DNA of 64,000 nucleotides from an uncultured Victivallales bacterium (GCA_944390795.1 CALXRI010000001.1:141092-205091), one strand, 5' to 3'. Positions 3,940-47,852 are shown, numbered from the stretch's first letter. Notes: generated by a model not told the origin, from the sequence alone. A program made the numbers and translations.

Positions 3940-4821
3940 TCAGATGTCAATGGAGGTTATTTTCCGGATCAGCAGGAAGCCGGCGAGGTCAAGCACGATC
4001 ACAAGAATGATGCACAGGATTCCCGGCAGACTGGAAAAGAAATTCGTCATCATGTCCGTGGCGATGTACATCATGGCGATGAAAAGCGCCCACGGCATGA
4101 GACCGATGATAACCGCCTGCATCCGTCCCTGCGCGGTCAGCGCCCGAATCCGTCCGGTGATGCGTACGCGTTCCCGGATCACGGAGGCGAGCCGTTCCAG
4201 AATCGAGGTCAGTTCGCCGCCGGTCTGCCGCGCTGTGACGATCGCGATTGCGACCAGTTCGAAATCCGGGCAGTTCAGACGCGCGGCCATTTTATCCAGT
4301 GCGTCGTCCAGCGAAACGCCGAGATGACTTTCATGCATCAGGAGGCTGAATTCGGAGGAGAGCGGCTTGCGGTTTTCGTTCGCGACCACCTCCAGAGCCT
4401 GGTTGATGCTGAAGCCTGCCTTCAGCGAACCGCTGATGGAAAGCAGGGCGTCTTCCAGCTGTTCGTTGAATTTCGTCAGACGCTGTTTCCGCAGGTGGCG
4501 CAGAAGCAGGCGCGGTCCCGGGAAGGATGCGCCTCCCGCAAGCAGTGCGGCGACCACGCCTTTGGTCAAAGTCATGTTTTCGACGAAAAACGCAACCGCC
4601 ATTACTGCGACGGCCGCGCAGAGAGCGGAAATCGCGAAGCTGATATCCAGAATTTTCGACGGCGGCATGTTCAGAAGCACGTCGTCCATTTCCACGGAAG
4701 CCTCCTGAATGAAGCGTTCCCGGTAGCGTGCGGAAAATGCCGAAATGAATTCGACGAAAATGAGCGCCGTGCAGGTCGCGGCGATTCCGGCGCAGAGACT
4801 GGCGAGGATGGTGAAGTTCAT
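3940..4821 (-). CDS. tadB: Tad pilus inner-membrane platform protein TadB
   Basis: FNEQLEDAL..SLKAGFS..QTGGELTSILERLASVIRER..IRALTAQGRMQ. Confidence 0.9.
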   Translation of the reverse strand: MNFTILASLCAGIAATCTALIFVEFISAFSARYRERFIQEASVEMDDVLLNMPPSKILDISFAISALCAAVAVMAVAFFVENMTLTKGVVAALLAGGASFPGPRLLLRHLRKQRLTKFNEQLEDALLSISGSLKAGFSINQALEVVANENRKPLSSEFSLLMHESHLGVSLDDALDKMAARLNCPDFELVAIAIVTARQTGGELTSILERLASVIRERVRITGRIRALTAQGRMQAVIIGLMPWALFIAMMYIATDMMTNFFSSLPGILCIILVIVLDLAGFLLIRKITSIDI

Positions 4822-6584
4822 CGCGCACCTCCGTTTCCGGAGCTCTTGTTGTTGAACATCGAAATGTCCAGATTCATTCCCGCACGCCTGATGTCGTCCA
4901 TGAAGGTCGGGATGCTGCCGGTCGGGACATAGCGCCCGGTCATTTTCCCGTCCTTGTCCCAGCCGTCCTGCTTGAAGACGAAAATGTCCTGCATCGTGAT
5001 GATTTCGCCTTCCATCTTGGTGATTTCGCTGACATGGGTGACTTTGCGCGAGCCGTCCTTTTCGCGGGAGATCTGCACGATGATCGAGATGGCCGAGGCG
5101 ATCTGCTCGCGGATGGCGCGCAGCGGAAGATCGAATCCCGCCATGAGCACGAGCGTTTCGAGGCGGGAAAGGGCGTCGCGCGGAGAATTCGCGTGAATCG
5201 TCGTCAGCGACCCGTCATGACCGGTGTTCATCGCCTGGAGCATGTCGAGCGCCTCGCCGCCGCGGCACTCGCCGATGACGATGCGGTCCGGACGCATGCG
5301 CAGCGCGTTCTTCACCAGGTCGCGGATGCTGATTTCACCCTTGCCTTCGATGTTGGCGGGACGCGCCTCCAGACGCACGACATGATCCTGCCGCAGCTGC
5401 AGTTCGGCGGCGTCCTCAATTGTCAGGATGCGTTCGGTGTCCGGCAGAAAGCCGCTCAGGATGTTGAGCAGCGTCGTTTTTCCGGAACCGGTTCCGCCGG
5501 AGATCACAATGTTCTTGCGCAGTTTCACGCAGACATCGAGAAAGTGCGCGATGTCCGCGGAGATCGAGCCGAAGCGGATCAGATCCCCGACCTGCAGAGG
5601 CACCTTCGAGAATTTCCGGATCGTGATGGAGGGGCCGACAAGCGAGAGCGGCGGGATGATCGCATTGACGCGCGAACCGTCCTTGAGTCTGGCGTCCACC
5701 ATCGGGGAACTTTCGTCGATGCGTCTGCCGAGCGGAGAGACGATGCGTTCGATTGCCGCGATCACCTGGTTGTTGTCCGCGAACGCCATGTCGGTCCGGT
5801 GGAGCTTGCCCTTGTATTCCACATAGATGTGGTCGGGACCGTTCACCATGATTTCCGTGATGGAGGGCATTGCGATCAGCTCTTCAAGCGGACCGAGTCC
5901 GATCGCCTCGTGAAGCAGTTCCCGTTCGATCAGTTCCTTGGAAATGCTTTTCGGAAGCGGAATGGAGATTTCCTCGACGATTTCGTGAATGGTGTTGGCG
6001 GCCTTCCGGTTCAGGTCTTTTTCCGATGCGCCGCTCATGACAAGACGTTTCAGGTTCAAACGCTTGATGAGTTCGGCGTGAGCGCGTTTCTTGATTTCCT
6101 GCAGGAGCGGACGATCCTCGAACGGCACGCCGGAAACCGCGAGGATTTCCACGCCGGAATGTCCGGGCGAAGAGATTGTTTCCAGACGGTTCTCGAGGTA
6201 ATTCTGCGGTTCTTTCACAGGATTTTCCTCTTCCTTCTCCGGAGGTTCCGGGGCGGAAACTGTAAGCGGCTGCGCGTCAATTGGTTCCGGTTCCTTTGCG
6301 GGGAATTCGATGAGAATGCTTCCGATGCGGATTTCGTCGCCCGGCAGAACTTCTTTCGGTGTTGCGCCGACGCGTTCGCCGTCCAGAAAGGTCCCCGTGT
6401 CGGATTCCAGATCCATCACGCGGATTCCGTCTTCCGCCACCAGAAGCTGGCAGTGGCGCACGGAAACGCCGTCGGCGTCCAGCTGGATGTGGGAATCCGC
6501 GCCGGAGCCGATCACGTAGACCCCGTTTCCGAGCTGTCCCGTGACGGGTTCGTTTTCCGGAATTCTGATCAGGATGTCATGCAT
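4818..6584 (-). CDS. cpaF: Tad/Flp pilus assembly ATPase CpaF/TadA with N-terminal FHA-like domain
   Basis: GLGPLE, EIMVNG, IDESSPMVDARL, Walker A GGTGSGKTT, LRMRPDRIVIGECRGGEA, AMNTGHDGS; N-terminal GVSVRHC..DLESDTGTFLDG is FHA-like. Confidence 0.93.
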   Translation of the reverse strand: MHDILIRIPENEPVTGQLGNGVYVIGSGADSHIQLDADGVSVRHCQLLVAEDGIRVMDLESDTGTFLDGERVGATPKEVLPGDEIRIGSILIEFPAKEPEPIDAQPLTVSAPEPPEKEEENPVKEPQNYLENRLETISSPGHSGVEILAVSGVPFEDRPLLQEIKKRAHAELIKRLNLKRLVMSGASEKDLNRKAANTIHEIVEEISIPLPKSISKELIERELLHEAIGLGPLEELIAMPSITEIMVNGPDHIYVEYKGKLHRTDMAFADNNQVIAAIERIVSPLGRRIDESSPMVDARLKDGSRVNAIIPPLSLVGPSITIRKFSKVPLQVGDLIRFGSISADIAHFLDVCVKLRKNIVISGGTGSGKTTLLNILSGFLPDTERILTIEDAAELQLRQDHVVRLEARPANIEGKGEISIRDLVKNALRMRPDRIVIGECRGGEALDMLQAMNTGHDGSLTTIHANSPRDALSRLETLVLMAGFDLPLRAIREQIASAISIIVQISREKDGSRKVTHVSEITKMEGEIITMQDIFVFKQDGWDKDGKMTGRYVPTGSIPTFMDDIRRAGMNLDISMFNNKSSGNGGAR

Positions 6585-41178: not shown

Positions 41179-42336
41179 TTATTTCACGCCGAGAAACTCC
41201 CAGTCAACCGCTGCCGATGCGGTTTTTCCCGTCTCGTCGGCAAACACGGCCTTCCCCGGTTCGAATGTGACATCCGCAACTTTTCCGAATCCTTCCGGAA
41301 TGAGTGCAATGCCTTGAATATGATGAATTACAGTGGGGGAATTTCTGCTGAATTCTCCGCAGGTTTTCCAGCCTTTCCGCGTCAGTGTGTTTTCCTCAAT
41401 GGACGGTTTGCATCCGTCGGCGAAATACGAACATGTCTCCTCAATGCCGATGCAGCGGGTGTTGCCGTTCCACGGCACGGCGTAGCGTCCGCTGTTGGAG
41501 GTCCATACGGTTGTGGAGGGCAGCTCCTCCGCGTTTTTCAGGGAGAAGAAAAGATAGCCGCGATCCGGATAGACCGCCGCCGCCCACGCCGGTTTGCCGG
41601 ACGGCTTCCGGAGCATGGCGAAAAGATCGACATAGCCGACGGGAGACGGCATGACGGAATAGTCATGGACGGGGTCGGCCTTGAACTGCGTCGGAAGAGC
41701 CTCCAGGCTGGTGAATTCCTCTCCGGAGGCGAGATACTGGTATTCCAGATTGACGGGACTGGCGAAAACGCCGGGGCAGGTCATGCCGAGATCGAATTTT
41801 CCGACGGAAAAGAACATTTTTTCGTCTTCCGCCGGCATTTCGATGATGGTGTGGTGTCCGTAAGGCATTTTCCCCTCGAAATCGCGGATGGTGTGCGTGA
41901 GGTAAACGGCATCGGCGCCGTTGCGCATTTCAATGCGCTTGACCACGTTTGCTCCAGAAACGGCACAGTTCATTTCAAATTCGAATACGGCCCCGTCCGG
42001 GGTTTCCTCGGCTTTCACAGGCGTCCATCGGAAGGCCGCCGTCTCGCCGTGCGGTGGAAAGGTTCTGCCGTCTACGGGATCGGCGTTTCCGCCGAACGGA
42101 AGACAGAAGAAATCGCCCCGGAGGTTCTGAAGGAGCGGAACCGAGGAAAGGTCGGGACGCTGATCCTGCCACGGGCTGATGAAATAGGGCTGAACCGGTT
42201 TCTCCGTATTTCTGCGGAAGGTTACAGGGGCGTGCTGTCCGCCGTCTTCCGTGAGAAACAGTTCAATGGCTCCGGATGTCAGATACCAGCCGGGGGTCCG
42301 GTGATTGATGTCCTTTCTGAGCAGTTTGTCATTCAT
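41179..42336 (-). CDS. Hypothetical galactose-mutarotase-like (aldose epimerase fold) protein
   Basis: LRGDFFCLPFGGN, PPHG, YGHH, CIGIEE motifs. Confidence 0.6.
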   Translation of the reverse strand: MNDKLLRKDINHRTPGWYLTSGAIELFLTEDGGQHAPVTFRRNTEKPVQPYFISPWQDQRPDLSSVPLLQNLRGDFFCLPFGGNADPVDGRTFPPHGETAAFRWTPVKAEETPDGAVFEFEMNCAVSGANVVKRIEMRNGADAVYLTHTIRDFEGKMPYGHHTIIEMPAEDEKMFFSVGKFDLGMTCPGVFASPVNLEYQYLASGEEFTSLEALPTQFKADPVHDYSVMPSPVGYVDLFAMLRKPSGKPAWAAAVYPDRGYLFFSLKNAEELPSTTVWTSNSGRYAVPWNGNTRCIGIEETCSYFADGCKPSIEENTLTRKGWKTCGEFSRNSPTVIHHIQGIALIPEGFGKVADVTFEPGKAVFADETGKTASAAVDWEFLGVK

Positions 42337-42469
42337 GATCTCGTCTCCTGTGATTGTTGTGGATCGAAGCGCTTCCGTGACTATAACGTGGTTCCCTGCA
42401 AAAATCAAGCTGAAGGAGACGGGAAGCTTTTCAAAAGCCGGACATTCGGGGTGTTTTCCCCGCCGCCGC

Positions 42470-43369
42470 TCATTGCTCCGGAGTGTGAATTACCGTGAAA
42501 TCCTTTTTCCTTTCCTCGAAGAGCCGGAAAAAGTCCTTGTTGGGAATCGGCGCCTTGTTCTGCCAGATTCCAAGCGTGAGTTCCCGGAAATCCGCCTTCA
42601 CATCCAGAATCACCGATGCAAGAGTGTCATCCGGCAGAATCAGCTCGGCCCTGTTCAGGTTTGAGAAGTCCTGCGGCAGAAGCAGGAAAGAGGGTCCGAA
42701 TCCCTTGTCTTTCCCGGACCCGTCAAGTTTCCTGTCGTAAAAAATCAGCCACCGGTCTTCGGGATTCAGCATGTTTTTCGCCTGTTTCCATGGTTTTCCG
42801 GCAAGTTCGCGCGCCGCGGTCCGGACGGCGGTGTCTTCCGCCTTCAGGATCCCGTTGATTCCTCCGACCTGAACAGCCAGGTGAATCCGGAATTTCCGCA
42901 GGGGTTCCAGCTGCGTTTCCGCCGGACGGAAACGCAGGAAAAGCATCGGGGAATCCGCTGCCATATAAGCGCTCAGTATGATGTTTGTCCCGTCGAAGCG
43001 GAATGTCATGTCAGCTCCCGCGGTTCTGCCTTTTTTCCAGATTTCGAAGTCCCGTTCCTGCGGCATGATCCGCTGCATGTCGATTCCGTTGACCTCCATG
43101 CGCAGAAAACGGCACTGGTGCTGGCCGAATCCTCCCTGCCGGCGCGGTTCGGTGAGAACCATGTAAAACGAGGTCTCTCCGTTTCCGCCGGGTTTCTGCT
43201 GGCAGAAATTGACCCCGCAGGTGTTCCGGGGCCCTGCGATCAGCGCCTGTCTGTTGAAGATCAGGTTGCCGGAGTTCCAGCCGGTGTATTTCTGGGCCGT
43301 GACGTTCATGTCCTGTCCGCAGAGCATTCCGGCGGCGGACAATGCTAGAAACAGGGAAATTTTTTTCAT
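42470..43369 (-). CDS. Hypothetical secreted beta-rich protein
   Basis: Signal peptide MKKISLFLALSAAGMLCG; AAGGAG RBS. Confidence 0.7.
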   Translation of the reverse strand: MKKISLFLALSAAGMLCGQDMNVTAQKYTGWNSGNLIFNRQALIAGPRNTCGVNFCQQKPGGNGETSFYMVLTEPRRQGGFGQHQCRFLRMEVNGIDMQRIMPQERDFEIWKKGRTAGADMTFRFDGTNIILSAYMAADSPMLFLRFRPAETQLEPLRKFRIHLAVQVGGINGILKAEDTAVRTAARELAGKPWKQAKNMLNPEDRWLIFYDRKLDGSGKDKGFGPSFLLLPQDFSNLNRAELILPDDTLASVILDVKADFRELTLGIWQNKAPIPNKDFFRLFEERKKDFTVIHTPEQ

Positions 43370-43506
43370 GACGGGAATCTCCTTTCAAAAAAAAATAAAC
43401 GGATGGGAGAGATGACGGAACAGAAGTGTTTCCGCTTCCGCATTCCTCCCGTTCTCATGAGAGGACGCCTGTCTGCCCCGTGAACGGCTGCCGGAATGTT
43501 TTTCCG

Positions 43507-46005
43507 CTAATCTCCTTTCCCCATGAACTTGATGATTCCATGGAGATTGATGTCGTGATTGTTGCCGAGGCACATGGAAGATGCGGAAACCTCCCGCGGT
43601 TCGGAAAGCTTATTGTTCACAAAGTTGAAGCGCCAGGACTGATAGGCTTTCGGGGACGGTTCCCCGAGCCCTGAAAAAGGCAGAAAGAATTCCAGAGTCC
43701 ACTCGTTTTCATTGAATGCGGAAGCCGAACGGAAACCCCGGCATTTCCATTGGAAGTCGCGCGCCATGAGGAAGGGTTTCAGCTGCTGTTTCATCATGCA
43801 GGCGCGGTTCTCCGGATCCAGCGCGATCTGAAAATAGACTTTTTTCTCTGTTCCGGGGGAGAAGAACAGCTCGACGACGGAATTCCGCCACATGTCCTTG
43901 TTTCCGGATGCCGGCGGATAGGGCATGTGGATTTTCCCGTAGATGCCGTTCGGATTCCACAGCAGCCGGAGATCCGCGGGATAACGCGGTTTTTCTCCGG
44001 TTCCGTTGGGTTCCAGCATGGGGACGGGGACGCATTTCTCCCATTCCGGCTCGTCTCCCTTTCCGTCGATCCTGATTTCCGCATCGCCGAAAAGACGCCG
44101 GACGGTGGAAAGCGGCGGGTTGTAGGCATGCTGGCCGCGCTGTGATTTCAGTTCGAATTTCAACGCCCTGCTCATAAGATCGTAACGTCTGCGCTCCACG
44201 GAACCGGCTTTCAGATGGCGTTCCGCCTCCTTCAGGCACTGTTCCATGCGCTCCAGCGTTTTCGGAGGGAACAGGGCTTTCGGATTCTGCGCCGGAACGG
44301 CATATTTCAGGAAGCCCTCCTTCAGGACGCGGTGCATTTCCTTCAGATGTTTTCCCGCCTCCGGTCCGTAAAAGAGAGTCCAGTGCTCGTCGAGAGCGGC
44401 ATCCACGTCGAAATCGGGATTCCACATGGCCCGCATGCCCGCGTACGTTGCATAATAGAAATGCCAGTGTCCCTGTTCGGGAAACGGACGCGGCCACATG
44501 CTGAACTCATGAAAGATCTCCACGTTTCCCAGAGTTTTTCCCAGCGCCTTCGGAATTTCTCCGAGGAACTGCGTGGCGATCGCCTGTGCAAAGCAGTTGT
44601 TGCCCGCATTGTAGGTCCAGAGCATCTGAACCGGCCGGTTTCCGAGCGCCTCGTACCAGCGGTTCATCTGGTCGCGGTACTGTGCGAGAACCTCCGGATT
44701 CCGGATGAAACGGGGAAATTTGCCGAGACAGACTCCCGCTTCCACATTGTCCGGCAGATAATATTTTTTCTGGAACGGCGCGTGAGTGTAGCTTGCGTAG
44801 GGCATGATGATCAGTTTCTTGTCCGGAAACTCCTTTTTGACGCGTTCGGCGAAATACCGGTAGAAACGCCCGTAGACATCGCTGAAGTAGGCGCCTTCCC
44901 CGTGCGAGATGTTTTCCTGTGTGATCAGGTTTTCCCGCCGGACCGTCGGATTGTTCCGCATTTCCGGGAGCTGGAGTTCGTTGTCGCACTGCCCGAACAC
45001 GATGTAGTAGCCGTTGTTGTAAGCCCAGCCCTGCTGATCCTTTCCGCCGGTCGCGTAAAAACGCTTCAGGGAGTCGATCAGATTGTCCGCGAACTGCAGG
45101 CTGGTGACGTCAAAGTAGTTGGAAGCGTGAGAGATCCGGCTGTAATACAAATGTCCCGTTCCACTGCGGAAAAAACTGCTTTCAATCCGGTCCGGATTGC
45201 TCTGCGCCCATTTTTCCGGATACGGGGAGTGCATGGAGGTGAACGGCAGAATCTTTGACCAGCGCTGCGACTGATAGTACTTCTCCAGATCCTCCTGCTT
45301 CAGTCCGGCAATGCTTCTGCGGATGCGGGACAGATCGATTTTCAGGTAGTGCGTCCCCCGGTTCTGGAAGTACGGTGCGTCCGTGTAGGCGAGCGGCGGA
45401 AGGCGCAGTTCCGCGACCGCGGGATGCACACTGCCGTCCGGACCCGGATAGTAAAAACGGCAGTTGAAAAAACGCTCCAGAAAATCATAGGCTCCCCACA
45501 GCGTTCCCTTCCGCGCGCCGAGCATGTAGAGCGGTCCCCTTGTGTTGAAAGACCGATCGGTGGAGGAGTCGTTTCCCACAATGGCCGCGCCGTTCCGGAA
45601 ACTCCGGACAAGGAATCCCTCCTGCGGAAGTTTCCGCGCATCGATTCCCAGTTTCCGCGTCAGCGGACTTTCCCCGACCAGAAGCAGATGGCGGGTTCTG
45701 ACGGCGTCCGCCTTTCTCCAGTCTACCGCCTCGACCTCCTTTCCGGTGGCCTTGCGGATGTTTTCCCTCAGGACGGCGATTGCCGGCTCGATGCTTTTCC
45801 ATGCGGGATGTTTCAGATGCGATTCCGCCTGCGCGTCATACACGATGGTGAAATCCGGCGTTCCATCACGGACCATCTGCACTTCCGCATGCTGTTCCGG
45901 CGGAGAAAGGATTTTCACTTTGTTCAATGCGGGATTTTCCAGGACGGAGGCGTCCGCCGTCAGGACGGCGGAACAGAAAAAAAGGACATTCAGCGGGAAC
46001 TTCAT
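43507..46005 (-). CDS. Secreted DUF4838-like glycoside hydrolase-type protein with C-terminal CBM9-like domain
   Basis: Signal peptide; GH20/GH67-type N-domain (EGFLVR..GTLWGAYDFLERFFNCRFYYPG), MWNPDFD..FYG, C-terminal IDGKGDEPEW..VELFF..WTLEFFLPF..WRFN. Confidence 0.75.
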   Translation of the reverse strand: MKFPLNVLFFCSAVLTADASVLENPALNKVKILSPPEQHAEVQMVRDGTPDFTIVYDAQAESHLKHPAWKSIEPAIAVLRENIRKATGKEVEAVDWRKADAVRTRHLLLVGESPLTRKLGIDARKLPQEGFLVRSFRNGAAIVGNDSSTDRSFNTRGPLYMLGARKGTLWGAYDFLERFFNCRFYYPGPDGSVHPAVAELRLPPLAYTDAPYFQNRGTHYLKIDLSRIRRSIAGLKQEDLEKYYQSQRWSKILPFTSMHSPYPEKWAQSNPDRIESSFFRSGTGHLYYSRISHASNYFDVTSLQFADNLIDSLKRFYATGGKDQQGWAYNNGYYIVFGQCDNELQLPEMRNNPTVRRENLITQENISHGEGAYFSDVYGRFYRYFAERVKKEFPDKKLIIMPYASYTHAPFQKKYYLPDNVEAGVCLGKFPRFIRNPEVLAQYRDQMNRWYEALGNRPVQMLWTYNAGNNCFAQAIATQFLGEIPKALGKTLGNVEIFHEFSMWPRPFPEQGHWHFYYATYAGMRAMWNPDFDVDAALDEHWTLFYGPEAGKHLKEMHRVLKEGFLKYAVPAQNPKALFPPKTLERMEQCLKEAERHLKAGSVERRRYDLMSRALKFELKSQRGQHAYNPPLSTVRRLFGDAEIRIDGKGDEPEWEKCVPVPMLEPNGTGEKPRYPADLRLLWNPNGIYGKIHMPYPPASGNKDMWRNSVVELFFSPGTEKKVYFQIALDPENRACMMKQQLKPFLMARDFQWKCRGFRSASAFNENEWTLEFFLPFSGLGEPSPKAYQSWRFNFVNNKLSEPREVSASSMCLGNNHDINLHGIIKFMGKGD

Positions 46006-46053
46006 TTTGCCGGTTCTCCTGTGGGGTTTCAATGATTTGCCGTTTCGAACCGT

Positions 46054-46833
46054 TCAGTTGTAAGGCCAGTAATCATAGATGAGGGAGGGGGTGACGAAAA
46101 TTTCCTCCGTGGCGTCTCCCCGCCAGGGCAGACCGTTGAACGACCTTCCCAGCAGTTCATAGTATCCCCCCTGGCCTGCGTGACCGTCGAGATAAACGAT
46201 ATTGGCCTTCCGGGAATGACGCAGGGAAACATGCTGCTGCTGGGAAATTTCAAACCGCCCGTGGCTTCTCGGGCTGCCCGTATTGCTTGATCTGGAATCC
46301 AGGCAGCCCATGACTTTTGACGGAATCCTGACCCATGAGATCTTCTGTCCCGGTTTCACGCTTGCTCCTGTTCCTCCCGGATTCCAGGCGAACACCTGGG
46401 ATGCGTTGGACAGTCCGTAGGGGATGTTGTTTGCCGCGTAGCCCTCCTTGTTCGGACGCACCGGACTCTGGGTCGGACATCCGAGAATGCTGTTTGCCGG
46501 AATGTAATAGGTCGCGACTTTCCGGATCCGGAAGGCATCCGTCACCAGCGTCACCCAGGAGTTTGTGGCATTCCCGTAATCCCCCGTGTAGTTCAGGACG
46601 GGATAGTAATCGCTGTTTTCCCCCGTGTATGCATAAATGAACTGGCCGATCTGCTTCAGATTTGTCGAACAGGATACGGACTGGGCCTTCTTTTTCATCG
46701 AATTCAACGCGGGAAGCAGCAGGGAGGCCAGAATTGCGATGATCGCCGTCACGACCAGAAGCTCGATCAGTGTGAAAGTTCCGCACTGGCGGCGGAAAAG
46801 AAAAACAGTCTTTTTTGCGGGTTTCATGACCAC
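46054..46833 (-). CDS. Prepilin-type N-terminal cleavage/methylation protein with H-X9-DG motif (DUF1559-like)
   Basis: [32 protein letters not shown]-terminal [13 protein letters not shown]. Confidence 0.93.
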
Positions 46834-46897
46834 TCTCTCTTTTTATGCAGGCTCCTATTTTTTAAGTATAATGTTTTTTTCCTTGAAAACAATACTC

Positions 46898-46929
46898 TTT
46901 TTGTAGATAAACATTCATTTTTTGTAGAT
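46898..46929. promoter_or_regulatory. 21-bp-spaced direct repeat, putative AraC binding site for the prepilin operon
   Basis: TTTTTGTAGAT at 46898 and 46919; adjacent to a weak -35 of a minus-strand promoter whose -10 is TATACT (46865-46870). Confidence 0.65.
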
Positions 46930-47003
46930 CGCTTTCTTTTTCTGCTTTTTATTATTGAGGAATGGCATTATAGTAATCCCGTATTGAAATGGAGGAAGGA
47001 CGC

Positions 47004-47852
47004 ATGCTGTCTCAAAGGGAAATCTGTCTGCTGATGCGGATGATTGAGCGGACCTACCGCTGTCGCATCTGCATCATCGACGGCGCCGGCAATTATCTGT
47101 TCAGCACGCATTTTCCCGAGATCGACACGGCGCATCTGGCAAACATCTGTCAGCGTGCCAACCGGGATGCGCAGTCTCTCTGCCGTCTCTGCGACGATAT
47201 TGCGGCCGGGCAGCATGCGGAAACCGTCAGGCACGCATTTTACAAACTCTGCCCTTACGGGTGCATGGAGATCGTCGGAACCGTGTCCGTTCCGGGAATG
47301 AAACCGTTCCAGATTTTTGCCGGAGTGTTCCAGGCGCACGGGGATCTGCCGGAAGACTCCCTTCTCTATCCCGGGAAACAGCTTGCCGCTTCCGGATCGA
47401 AGGAGATCGGAAAGCTGACGGACGAGGAGTTTTCCGAACTTCCCGTGCTCATGGACATGCTGACAAGAGAAATCTCTCTGCTGTTTGAAAAACATCTGTC
47501 GGAAGGAGCCGGTGACAATGATCCGAAACAGCGGATCATGGATTACATCAATGGGAATTTCCGTGAAAATCTTTCCCTGTCTGCTATCGCGTCGAAGCTG
47601 GGATGGAGCGACTCTCACACCACCGTCCGCATCCGGCGGATGTTCGGAAAGAGTTTCATTCAGATGCTCAATGAACGCCGGATTGAAAATGCGAAATGGC
47701 TGCTCCGAAACCGGACATTGTATCCGATCTCCAAAATTGCGGAAGTTTCCGGATTTCACAGTGTTCCATACTTCTATCGTGTCTTTCTCCGCCTTACGGG
47801 AATGTCGCCGACCAGGTACCGTGCAGCGGGAAAAACATTTTCCCAGAAGTAG
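47004..47852 (+). CDS. AraC-family regulator with PocR-like sensor domain
   Basis: Cys-containing N-domain (C..CD..CPYGCMEIV), C-terminal HTH (RIENAKWLL..IAEVSGFHSVPYFYRVF..GMSPTRYR); GGAGG RBS; alternative start at 46989. Confidence 0.9.
   Translation: MLSQREICLLMRMIERTYRCRICIIDGAGNYLFSTHFPEIDTAHLANICQRANRDAQSLCRLCDDIAAGQHAETVRHAFYKLCPYGCMEIVGTVSVPGMKPFQIFAGVFQAHGDLPEDSLLYPGKQLAASGSKEIGKLTDEEFSELPVLMDMLTREISLLFEKHLSEGAGDNDPKQRIMDYINGNFRENLSLSAIASKLGWSDSHTTVRIRRMFGKSFIQMLNERRIENAKWLLRNRTLYPISKIAEVSGFHSVPYFYRVFLRLTGMSPTRYRAAGKTFSQK

Follow-up and report, generated by a model that had tools for sequence, protein, structure and literature searches.

Complex and host-derived glycans are broken down by bacteria of the Planctomycetes-Verrucomicrobia-Chlamydiae (PVC) superphylum, which are also able to internalise polymers and which, to our knowledge, lack the SusC/D system that explains polymer uptake in Bacteroidota. 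The largest paralogous family of these bacteria is, as far as we know, that of the DUF1559/H-X9-DG pilin-like proteins, for which we know of no function. The titles and abstract openings of papers mentioning DUF1559 likewise give no function for the family, and those of the literature on Lentisphaerota and Victivallales pilins do not describe the gene cassette dealt with here. [quoted passage not shown] The locus studied here lies at 41179-47852 of the window (the whole 64,000-nt stretch of DNA analysed, from an uncultured Victivallales bacterium) and consists of a divergent AraC regulator opposite four co-oriented minus-strand genes, headed by a gene for a prepilin-like H-X9-DG protein and separated by intergenic gaps of 21, 137 and 61 nt (Table 1). 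Very probably it is a copy of the cassette that serves as the standard for glycan utilisation in a Victivallales-type (Lentisphaeria) bacterium of the chicken gut, and on genome-wide counts the arrangement is far beyond chance. With a pilin gene built into nearly every enzyme operon under sugar regulation here, the huge family acquires a testable role, in glycan capture or in enzyme export, and the puzzles of polymer uptake and of pilin function both become bench questions, namely whether the head binds glycan or enzyme and whether deletion stops uptake or secretion.

The genome (3.44 Mb in 66 contigs, 95% complete) was searched with a family hidden Markov model (HMM) made from open reading frames (ORFs) bearing the FTLIE motif, which retrieved 123 ORFs at E<=1e-3 and 112 at E<1e-20, the latter being the 112 pilin-like paralogues counted below. 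Genes, about 2400, came from a simple codon-usage caller that reproduced those of the window and missed some overlapping genes elsewhere; neighbouring domains are Pfam matches at E<=1e-5, with Pfam standing in for CAZy, signal peptides follow a crude rule, and related genomes are not independent samples. A co-directional gene lies downstream of 101 of the 112 pilins, 88 of these genes within 150 nt, and the median distance from pilin to next gene is 37 nt. Products of at least 500 aa are encoded by 64 of the downstream genes, versus 24% of all genes. The upstream gene is co-directional for 87 pilins and divergent for 20.

Sugar-type regulators account for 57 of the 99 distinct upstream neighbours, comprising 25 GntR (many of them fused to Peripla_BP_3), 17 LacI, 12 AraC and 3 with Peripla_BP_3 only, and 14 more are clear glycoside hydrolases (GHs). 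Downstream, carbohydrate-active-type domains, that is GH, carbohydrate esterase, polysaccharide lyase, carbohydrate-binding module (CBM) and LamG, occur in 46 of 98 distinct neighbours. DUF4838 (17), LamG-type (8) and GH42-like (6) domains are the most numerous, followed by fewer cases of GH123, rhamnosidase, GH20b, heparinase, beta-helix, esterases, CBM9 and CBM4_9; the other neighbours are 37 without a Pfam match, many of them 600-1300 aa long, and 15 of other kinds. DUF4838 also appears in 6 of the 59 genes scanned, out of 91, at two positions downstream. In one ORF of 890 aa (L042:7309-9981, minus strand; G000:C11), GH38 alpha-mannosidase domains come after a GntR helix-turn-helix (HTH) at residues 11-73; either regulator and enzyme are genuinely fused here, or the longest-ORF rule has joined two genes.

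Enrichment was equally clear when counted from the side of the neighbours. The 45 DUF4838 genes of the genome adjoin a pilin in 23 cases versus 184 of 2243 other genes (p 2e-13) and lie within two genes of one in 37 cases versus 340 of 2243 (p 1.4e-22), while 33 of the 58 Peripla_BP_3 regulators adjoin a pilin versus 174 of 2230 others (p 8e-21). For the 60 mapped AraC genes the figures are 14 versus 193 of 2228 for adjoining genes (p 6e-4) and 25 versus 352 of 2228 within two genes (p 2e-6). Exported-looking proteins, as judged by the crude signal-peptide rule, are encoded by 72 of the 99 downstream genes that are co-directional versus 410 of 2010 genes elsewhere, and the number of such proteins per pilin run is 0 in 34 runs, 1 in 43, 2 in 28 and 3 in 7. 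Transporters, whether of the ABC type or of other kinds, seldom occur in the cassettes. On these counts, the layout seen in the window is the rule in this genome and not a one-off.

These counts bear on what a first-pass annotation of the window had put forward. All five genes that it listed (AraC, prepilin, DUF4838 enzyme, secreted protein, mutarotase-like protein) were recovered in the ORF list at their coordinates, and the enrichment of carbohydrate-active-enzyme-type and AraC/LacI genes beside H-X9-DG genes, which it had proposed as a check, is strong in this genome and holds in relatives. It placed the pilin in the position of the substrate-capture gene of a polysaccharide utilisation locus (PUL), and the pilin does stand where genes for capture and transport would be expected in a PUL. 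Its inference that such pilins are substrate-specific subunits for glycan binding and import is supported in part, since an adaptor that exports or displays the adjoining enzyme would suit these data too. The absence of transporter genes that it had remarked on is also correct for the operon and extends further, in that neither a TonB-dependent receptor (PF00593) nor SusD (PF07980) gave any match in the 95%-complete genome, which holds dozens of glycoside-hydrolase operons.

The window DNA occurs near-identically in chicken-gut and bird metagenome runs of 8 studies, four of which runs may be its source. Homologues of the 841-aa enzyme were found in 12 of 18 same-family genomes, with 48% identity at best, and in none of 12 genomes from other families of the order; a search for exact peptide words of the enzyme found no relative, whereas the genome search did. 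Upstream DNA is available for 8 of 11 related loci; 6 of them have a full pilin-like ORF immediately upstream of the enzyme homologue, a seventh has a partial one, and the eighth (L099) has the homologue of the 299-aa protein in that place. This 299-aa homologue adjoins the enzyme homologue in 8 of the 11 loci, on its upstream side in L099 and on its downstream side in the other 7. The regulators vary from locus to locus, with a co-directional GntR+Peripla_BP_3 in L102, a divergent GntR in L105 and an AraC plus a GntR in L106. Because the 7 related loci examined showed neither the mutarotase-like gene nor this AraC next to the enzyme, both are left out of the conserved core, which consists of pilin, enzyme and 299-aa protein and in which the regulator changes. 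In L102, from a same-genus relative, a second cassette with LacI and then a pilin-like gene (L102:9761-11517) directly follows the orthologous one, so cassettes can pack head to tail.

In a survey of 77 pilin-like loci from named genomes, the best matches to the window pilin were from Victivallales, and a sugar-type regulator preceded the pilin in 13 of the 25 loci labelled Lentisphaerota. Carbohydrate-active types made up 13 of 50 downstream ORFs from named genomes; 10 of these 13 were in Lentisphaerota, and four of those were DUF4838. Tight cassettes of this kind thus belong mainly to Lentisphaerota.

The conserved order also speaks to the idea that the linkage is functionless, with a selfishly expanding or generic structural family landing beside regulators. 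The extreme size of the family, 112 copies in 3.44 Mb, and the behaviour of the pilin N-terminal coding stretch as a dispersed repeat that breaks metagenome contigs at 46709-46746 would be expected of such a family. Orientation, spacing and neighbour classes are nevertheless highly non-random, and the pilin-enzyme-299-aa order is kept across genera at 30-48% protein identity while regulators change, which leaves this explanation very improbable.

The window pilin itself meets PF07963 N_methyl (26.4 bits vs 21.2) and TIGR02532 (20 vs 16.3). Its assignment as a DUF1559/H-X9-DG prepilin stands in part: the exact H-X9-DG motif is present near the C-terminus, but neither curated threshold is reached, PF07596/DUF1559 scoring 14 bits under a cut-off of 23.3 and TIGR04294 giving no match at E<=0.01; the window gene is absent from the 10 hits of that profile in the genome. 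With the family HMM built here the protein scores E 2.6e-52, and it is homologous to paralogues that pass the curated profiles. The positions conserved at >=90% in 111 aligned paralogues are F18 (+1), T19, L20, E22 (+5), the following helix, H204 and D214; the Cys pair C53/C117 is conserved as well, and the remainder averages about 30% identity. An AlphaFold2 (AF2) model (pLDDT 75.5, pTM 0.73) has a long helix at residues 20-70, a small beta sheet and a disordered tail. In VIA-align, 17 of the 18 top rows for this model were type IV pilins or pseudopilins, including PilA4, EpsG (Z 4.1) and PulG (Z 3.6), with Z scores that are low by the tool's own caution.

The relation to GspG is confined to the helix. 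The GspG equivalog TIGR01710 is not met by the window pilin (31.2 bits vs 88.85, residues 20-76 only), and hhalign of the pilin family against the GspG of this genome aligned only the N-terminal helix (columns 13-70); the idea that H-X9-DG represents the calcium-loop motif of GspG is therefore unsupported. As a side observation, it is at 46709-46746, within the conserved pilin N-terminal coding stretch, that contigs from a number of independent metagenome runs break off or diverge. This stretch acts as a dispersed repeat of more than 100 copies, and in the assembly a contig end comes within 300 nt of 7 of the 112 pilin-like genes.

Classical prepilin peptidases need Gly, rarely Ala, at position -1. 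The window pilin has Thr there, before FTLIE, as the first-pass annotation had pointed out, and Gly precedes Phe in only 11 of 117 motif-bearing ORFs of the genome; across the survey, Gly or Ala stands at -1 in 4 of 30 Lentisphaerota pilin-likes against 57 of 59 other PVC loci. The bona fide GspG of the genome (TIGR01710 151 bits vs 88.85) reads ...KRTD/FTLIEV, with Asp at -1. GspG matches were collected from 60 other genomes of the same phylum (GTDB), and 30 with loci (L188-L217) were read, one of which has no motif at the expected place. Gly is at -1 in 14 of 14 GspG proteins from other orders of the phylum and in 0 of 10 from the same order (A, L, R, R, N, R, R, R, S, K); members of the family to which this genome belongs give G, G and N, and this genome and a congener give Asp. 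Because the true GspG in the order also lacks Gly at -1, the Thr of the window pilin reflects a lineage-wide relaxation: the residue is as reported but is the norm in the order, and the Gly-1 rule appears to be relaxed order-wide, Thr being no peculiarity of this gene. A PilD-type gene is present (295 aa, with four Cys and a GWGD motif read by eye). The loss of Gly-1 across the whole order, GspG included, points most simply to a prepilin peptidase of new, altered specificity.

The scarcity of Gly at -1 would also suit a protein that is no filament subunit at all and stays helix-anchored in the inner membrane as a periplasmic chaperone, binding protein or signal relay. Pfam names DUF1559 SBP_bac_10, and in most cassettes a regulator is co-transcribed just upstream, both of which fit such a role. 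However, the true GspG, which needs processing to work, has lost Gly at -1 too, as have all 10 same-order orthologues, and Phe+1 and Glu+5, which serve cleavage and filament packing, are among the positions conserved at >=90% in the 111 paralogues. The regulators are cytoplasmic one-component types with ligand domains of their own, and transporters are rare in the cassettes. An anchored protein of this kind is accordingly unlikely.

The genome encodes components of filament machinery. The canonical type II secretion system (T2SS) operon is complete (GspD, E, F, G, H, I, J), and three Peptidase_A24 genes, 12 T2SSE ATPases at or over the cut-off, nine secretin-domain matches and three PilT-family ATPases over the cut-off were found. 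One of the 12 T2SSE-family ATPases lies in the window at 4818-6584 (minus strand), a secretion ATPase of the TadA/CpaF type, 588 aa long, whose N-terminal region is FHA-like.

Our tentative proposal is that the pilin-like protein may act in glycan capture or import. A sugar-sensing regulator, here the divergent AraC, would control the pilin-first operon, and a PilD-type peptidase would cut the pilin-like protein before Phe+1, with Gly at -1 no longer needed in the order. A shared type IV filament machine (T2SS or type IV pilus, with PilT ATPases) would then assemble the pilin into a fibre via the conserved N-terminal helix, and the fast-evolving head would bind the target glycan of the operon and assist its passage, by way of a secretin, to the exported enzyme. 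The pilin would in this way fill the SusC/SusD role of Bacteroidota, which is absent from this genome. Capture or import is favoured over an adaptor for enzyme export or display because the pilin occupies the SusC/D position of a PUL, because the genome lacks a TonB-dependent importer, because retraction ATPases and many secretins are present, and because PVC fibres bind dextran and pilin-like structures adhere to cellulose elsewhere.

The export or display adaptor is itself a possible reading. Here the pilin would join the T2SS pseudopilus or a surface fibre, recognise the neighbouring enzyme and secrete or tether it, and glycan products would enter via ordinary porins. An exported protein follows the pilin in 72 of 99 cases, at roughly one per pilin, a complete T2SS is present, and the CBM-type modules on the enzymes are as expected for work outside the cell. 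Adjacency is kept across genera, and pilin-enzyme pairs duplicate as units: among 27 pilin-DUF4838 pairs there are 8, none of them tandem, for which the nearest pilin has the nearest enzyme as its partner, against an expectation of about 1. The best matches of the window pilin are the pilins beside orthologous enzymes and C21:13259 of its own genome, which adjoins the closest DUF4838 paralogue of the window enzyme. On the other side, known T2SS systems secrete many cargoes and are not known to use private pseudopilins for them, 35 of the 112 runs have two or three exported proteins per pilin and 34 have none by the crude rule, and the pilin diverges more quickly than the enzyme (identities between same-genus loci of about 30-35% versus 47-48%), for which exposure is an easier explanation than a fixed protein interface.

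Several observations weigh against glycan capture or import by the pilin. The head domain gave no lectin or CBM match, and the resemblance to a pilin fold is weak, with a best VIA-align Z of 5.4 (PilA4) and no Foldseek match for the model at E<=1e-3. The downstream enzymes have CBM-type modules of their own, so that a separate binder is not obviously needed, and about one exported protein per pilin run fits a one-pilin-one-enzyme adaptor equally. Overall, pilin and enzyme similarity show a Spearman correlation of 0.02 in the Mantel test, reached by 1848 of 5000 permutations, so deep co-divergence is unsupported by rank correlation; the Pearson version alone is positive (0.35, 0 of 5000 permutations), a value driven by close pairs. 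Outside Lentisphaerota the regulator-pilin link occurs in only 2-3 of about 48 loci, and the counts depend on rough gene calls, on the crude rule for signal peptides and on Pfam in place of CAZy.

Capture or import could be carried further, into a more speculative and somewhat less likely general form. The H-X9-DG pilin-likes would be interchangeable subunits, each specific for a glycan, of a retractile type IV filament that replaces TonB-dependent SusC/D import in Lentisphaerota, each induced operon loading its own lectin-pilin on a shared fibre that pulls glycan via a secretin to the periplasm. Such filaments would be the polysaccharide-binding fibres of PVC bacteria and their larger range of substrates would be served by a modified prepilin peptidase that ignores -1.

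The description of the second operon gene as a DUF4838/CBM9 enzyme holds for its first half. DUF4838 (PF16126) is matched at 60.5 bits against a cut-off of 26.6, the best stretch being residues 374-566, which fall on profile positions 140-323 of 325. By the crude rule, the protein starts with a putative signal peptide. The Pfam CBM9 profile (PF06452) has no match in the protein even at E<=10, and the link to it is only transitive, via a paralogue stretch that Pfam assigns to CBM9_1 and to which residues ~655-800 align (E 1.3e-5). A PDB sequence search with the 841-aa and 409-aa proteins returned no useful match and no solved relative of the enzyme. According to excerpts of PMC10570127, DUF4838 is the catalytic domain of GH163 and GH185, a TIM barrel distantly related to GH20; GH163 was founded on BT1035 and cuts GlcNAc-beta1,2-Man in complex N-glycans, GH185 was founded on Sp_0475, a 6-sulfo-GlcNAcase, and the Pfam set of the domain held 3826 sequences in 2023. 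By analogy with these families, a host-glycan target of the 841-aa enzyme in the chicken gut is plausible. The 45 DUF4838 genes in this 3.44-Mb genome represent a very large expansion.

The third product, which had been called secreted, looks exported, as its 299 residues begin with a signal-peptide-like N-terminus; it has no Pfam or NCBIfam match and no named Atlas cluster. The 409-aa ORF at the end of the operon, whose probable start is Met25, also has no Pfam match, and its reading as mutarotase-like is upheld by the predicted fold. The AF2 model (pLDDT 95.5) has 116 Foldseek matches at E<=1e-3, the top ones all galactose mutarotases (3mwx/4bze: E 3.7e-12, TM 0.61/0.72). The 1169 homologues at E<=1e-10 are all unnamed, the closest labelled ones coming from metagenome-assembled genomes of Lentisphaeria and Victivallales. 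Residues H96, H161, H162, D225, D237 and E299 are invariant across 41 homologues and parallel, in sequence order only, the residues H96, H170, D243 and E304 given in PDB titles. In one metatranscriptome, low-depth contigs are identical to parts of the enzyme and mutarotase-like genes over 162-298 bases, and about 40 bases of the pilin N-terminal coding stretch are matched with 4 differences; such contigs cannot show transcription, and nothing follows from the parts of genes that they leave uncovered.

The regulator had been described as PocR-AraC. Its AraC part is firm, with Pfam HTH_18 at 67.5 bits (cut-off 33.6) and HTH_AraC at 36.8 bits, and its PocR sensor falls short at 21.9 bits against a cut-off of 23.9 (E 1.6e-4). 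The nearest AraC paralogue (C3:152696-153580, E 4.6e-85) is likewise divergent from a pilin-like gene. Between AraC and pilin, two direct copies of TTTTTGTAGAT at 46898-46908 and 46919-46929, 21 bp apart, may be half-sites of the regulator. Consensus promoter and terminator scans of the locus found sites no more frequently than in shuffles.

Table 1. Positions of the genes and control region of the locus in the window, and of the GspG gene of the same genome
Feature	Position	Strand	Basis
AraC-family regulator, 287 aa, weak PocR-like N-terminal sensor	46989..47852	+	HTH_18, HTH_AraC profiles
AT-rich divergent control region, 155 nt, two TTTTTGTAGAT copies	46834..46988	.	read by eye
Prepilin-like H-X9-DG protein at the head of the operon, 259 aa (257 aa counted from ATG)	46054..46833	-	PF07963, TIGR02532
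Exported 841-aa DUF4838 glycoside-hydrolase-type protein, CBM9-like C-terminal domain	43507..46032	-	PF16126, signal-peptide-like start
Exported 299-aa protein without known family, conserved companion of the enzyme	42470..43369	-	homologues in related loci
Galactose-mutarotase-fold protein, cytoplasmic, 409-aa ORF (385 aa from Met at 42336)	41179..42408	-	model + Foldseek
GspG	G000:C5:86406-86795 (L186:2907-3326)	-	TIGR01710

Among described systems, the enzyme is closest to GH163 (BT1035) and GH185 (Sp_0475), with which it shares, as a likeness at the domain level, DUF4838; it differs in that the match covers mainly profile positions 140-323 and that this genome has 45 such genes. For the proposed fibre, the nearest parallels are the PVC fibres that bind a polysaccharide which ends up inside the cell (PMC5394234) and the pilin-like proteins of Fibrobacter and Ruminococcus that adhere to a glycan (PMC4704652), although excerpts of these papers describe no one-pilin-per-operon arrangement and leave the planctomycete fibre subunits unnamed. 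GspG and the type IV pilins share with the window pilin a class III signal-like N-terminus, Phe+1, Glu+5 and, going by its model, a long helix on a small beta sheet. In contrast to GspG, only the helix is detectably homologous, the head of the window pilin is about twice as large, and more than 100 copies are scattered in catabolic operons instead of one machinery operon. The DUF1559/H-X9-DG family of PVC bacteria (PF07596, TIGR04294) has the same FTLIELLVV helix, C-terminal H-X9-DG, massive paralogy and distribution over Lentisphaerota, Verrucomicrobiota and Planctomycetota; the window protein departs from it in lying under both curated thresholds and in a -1 residue that is free to vary in the order.

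Beyond these parallels, new here are the statistics for the whole genome, the 299-aa protein as a conserved partner, the lack of a TonB-dependent receptor, the PilT count and the order-wide loss of Gly-1 on GspG. As in the SusC/SusD PULs of Bacteroidota, many sugar-regulated loci are present, in which a fast-evolving, non-catalytic envelope component heads an operon with exported enzymes. Unlike those PULs, the cassettes belong to a genome without a SusC-like transporter or SusD, their regulators are cytoplasmic GntR, LacI or AraC types, and the gene at their head is pilin-like.

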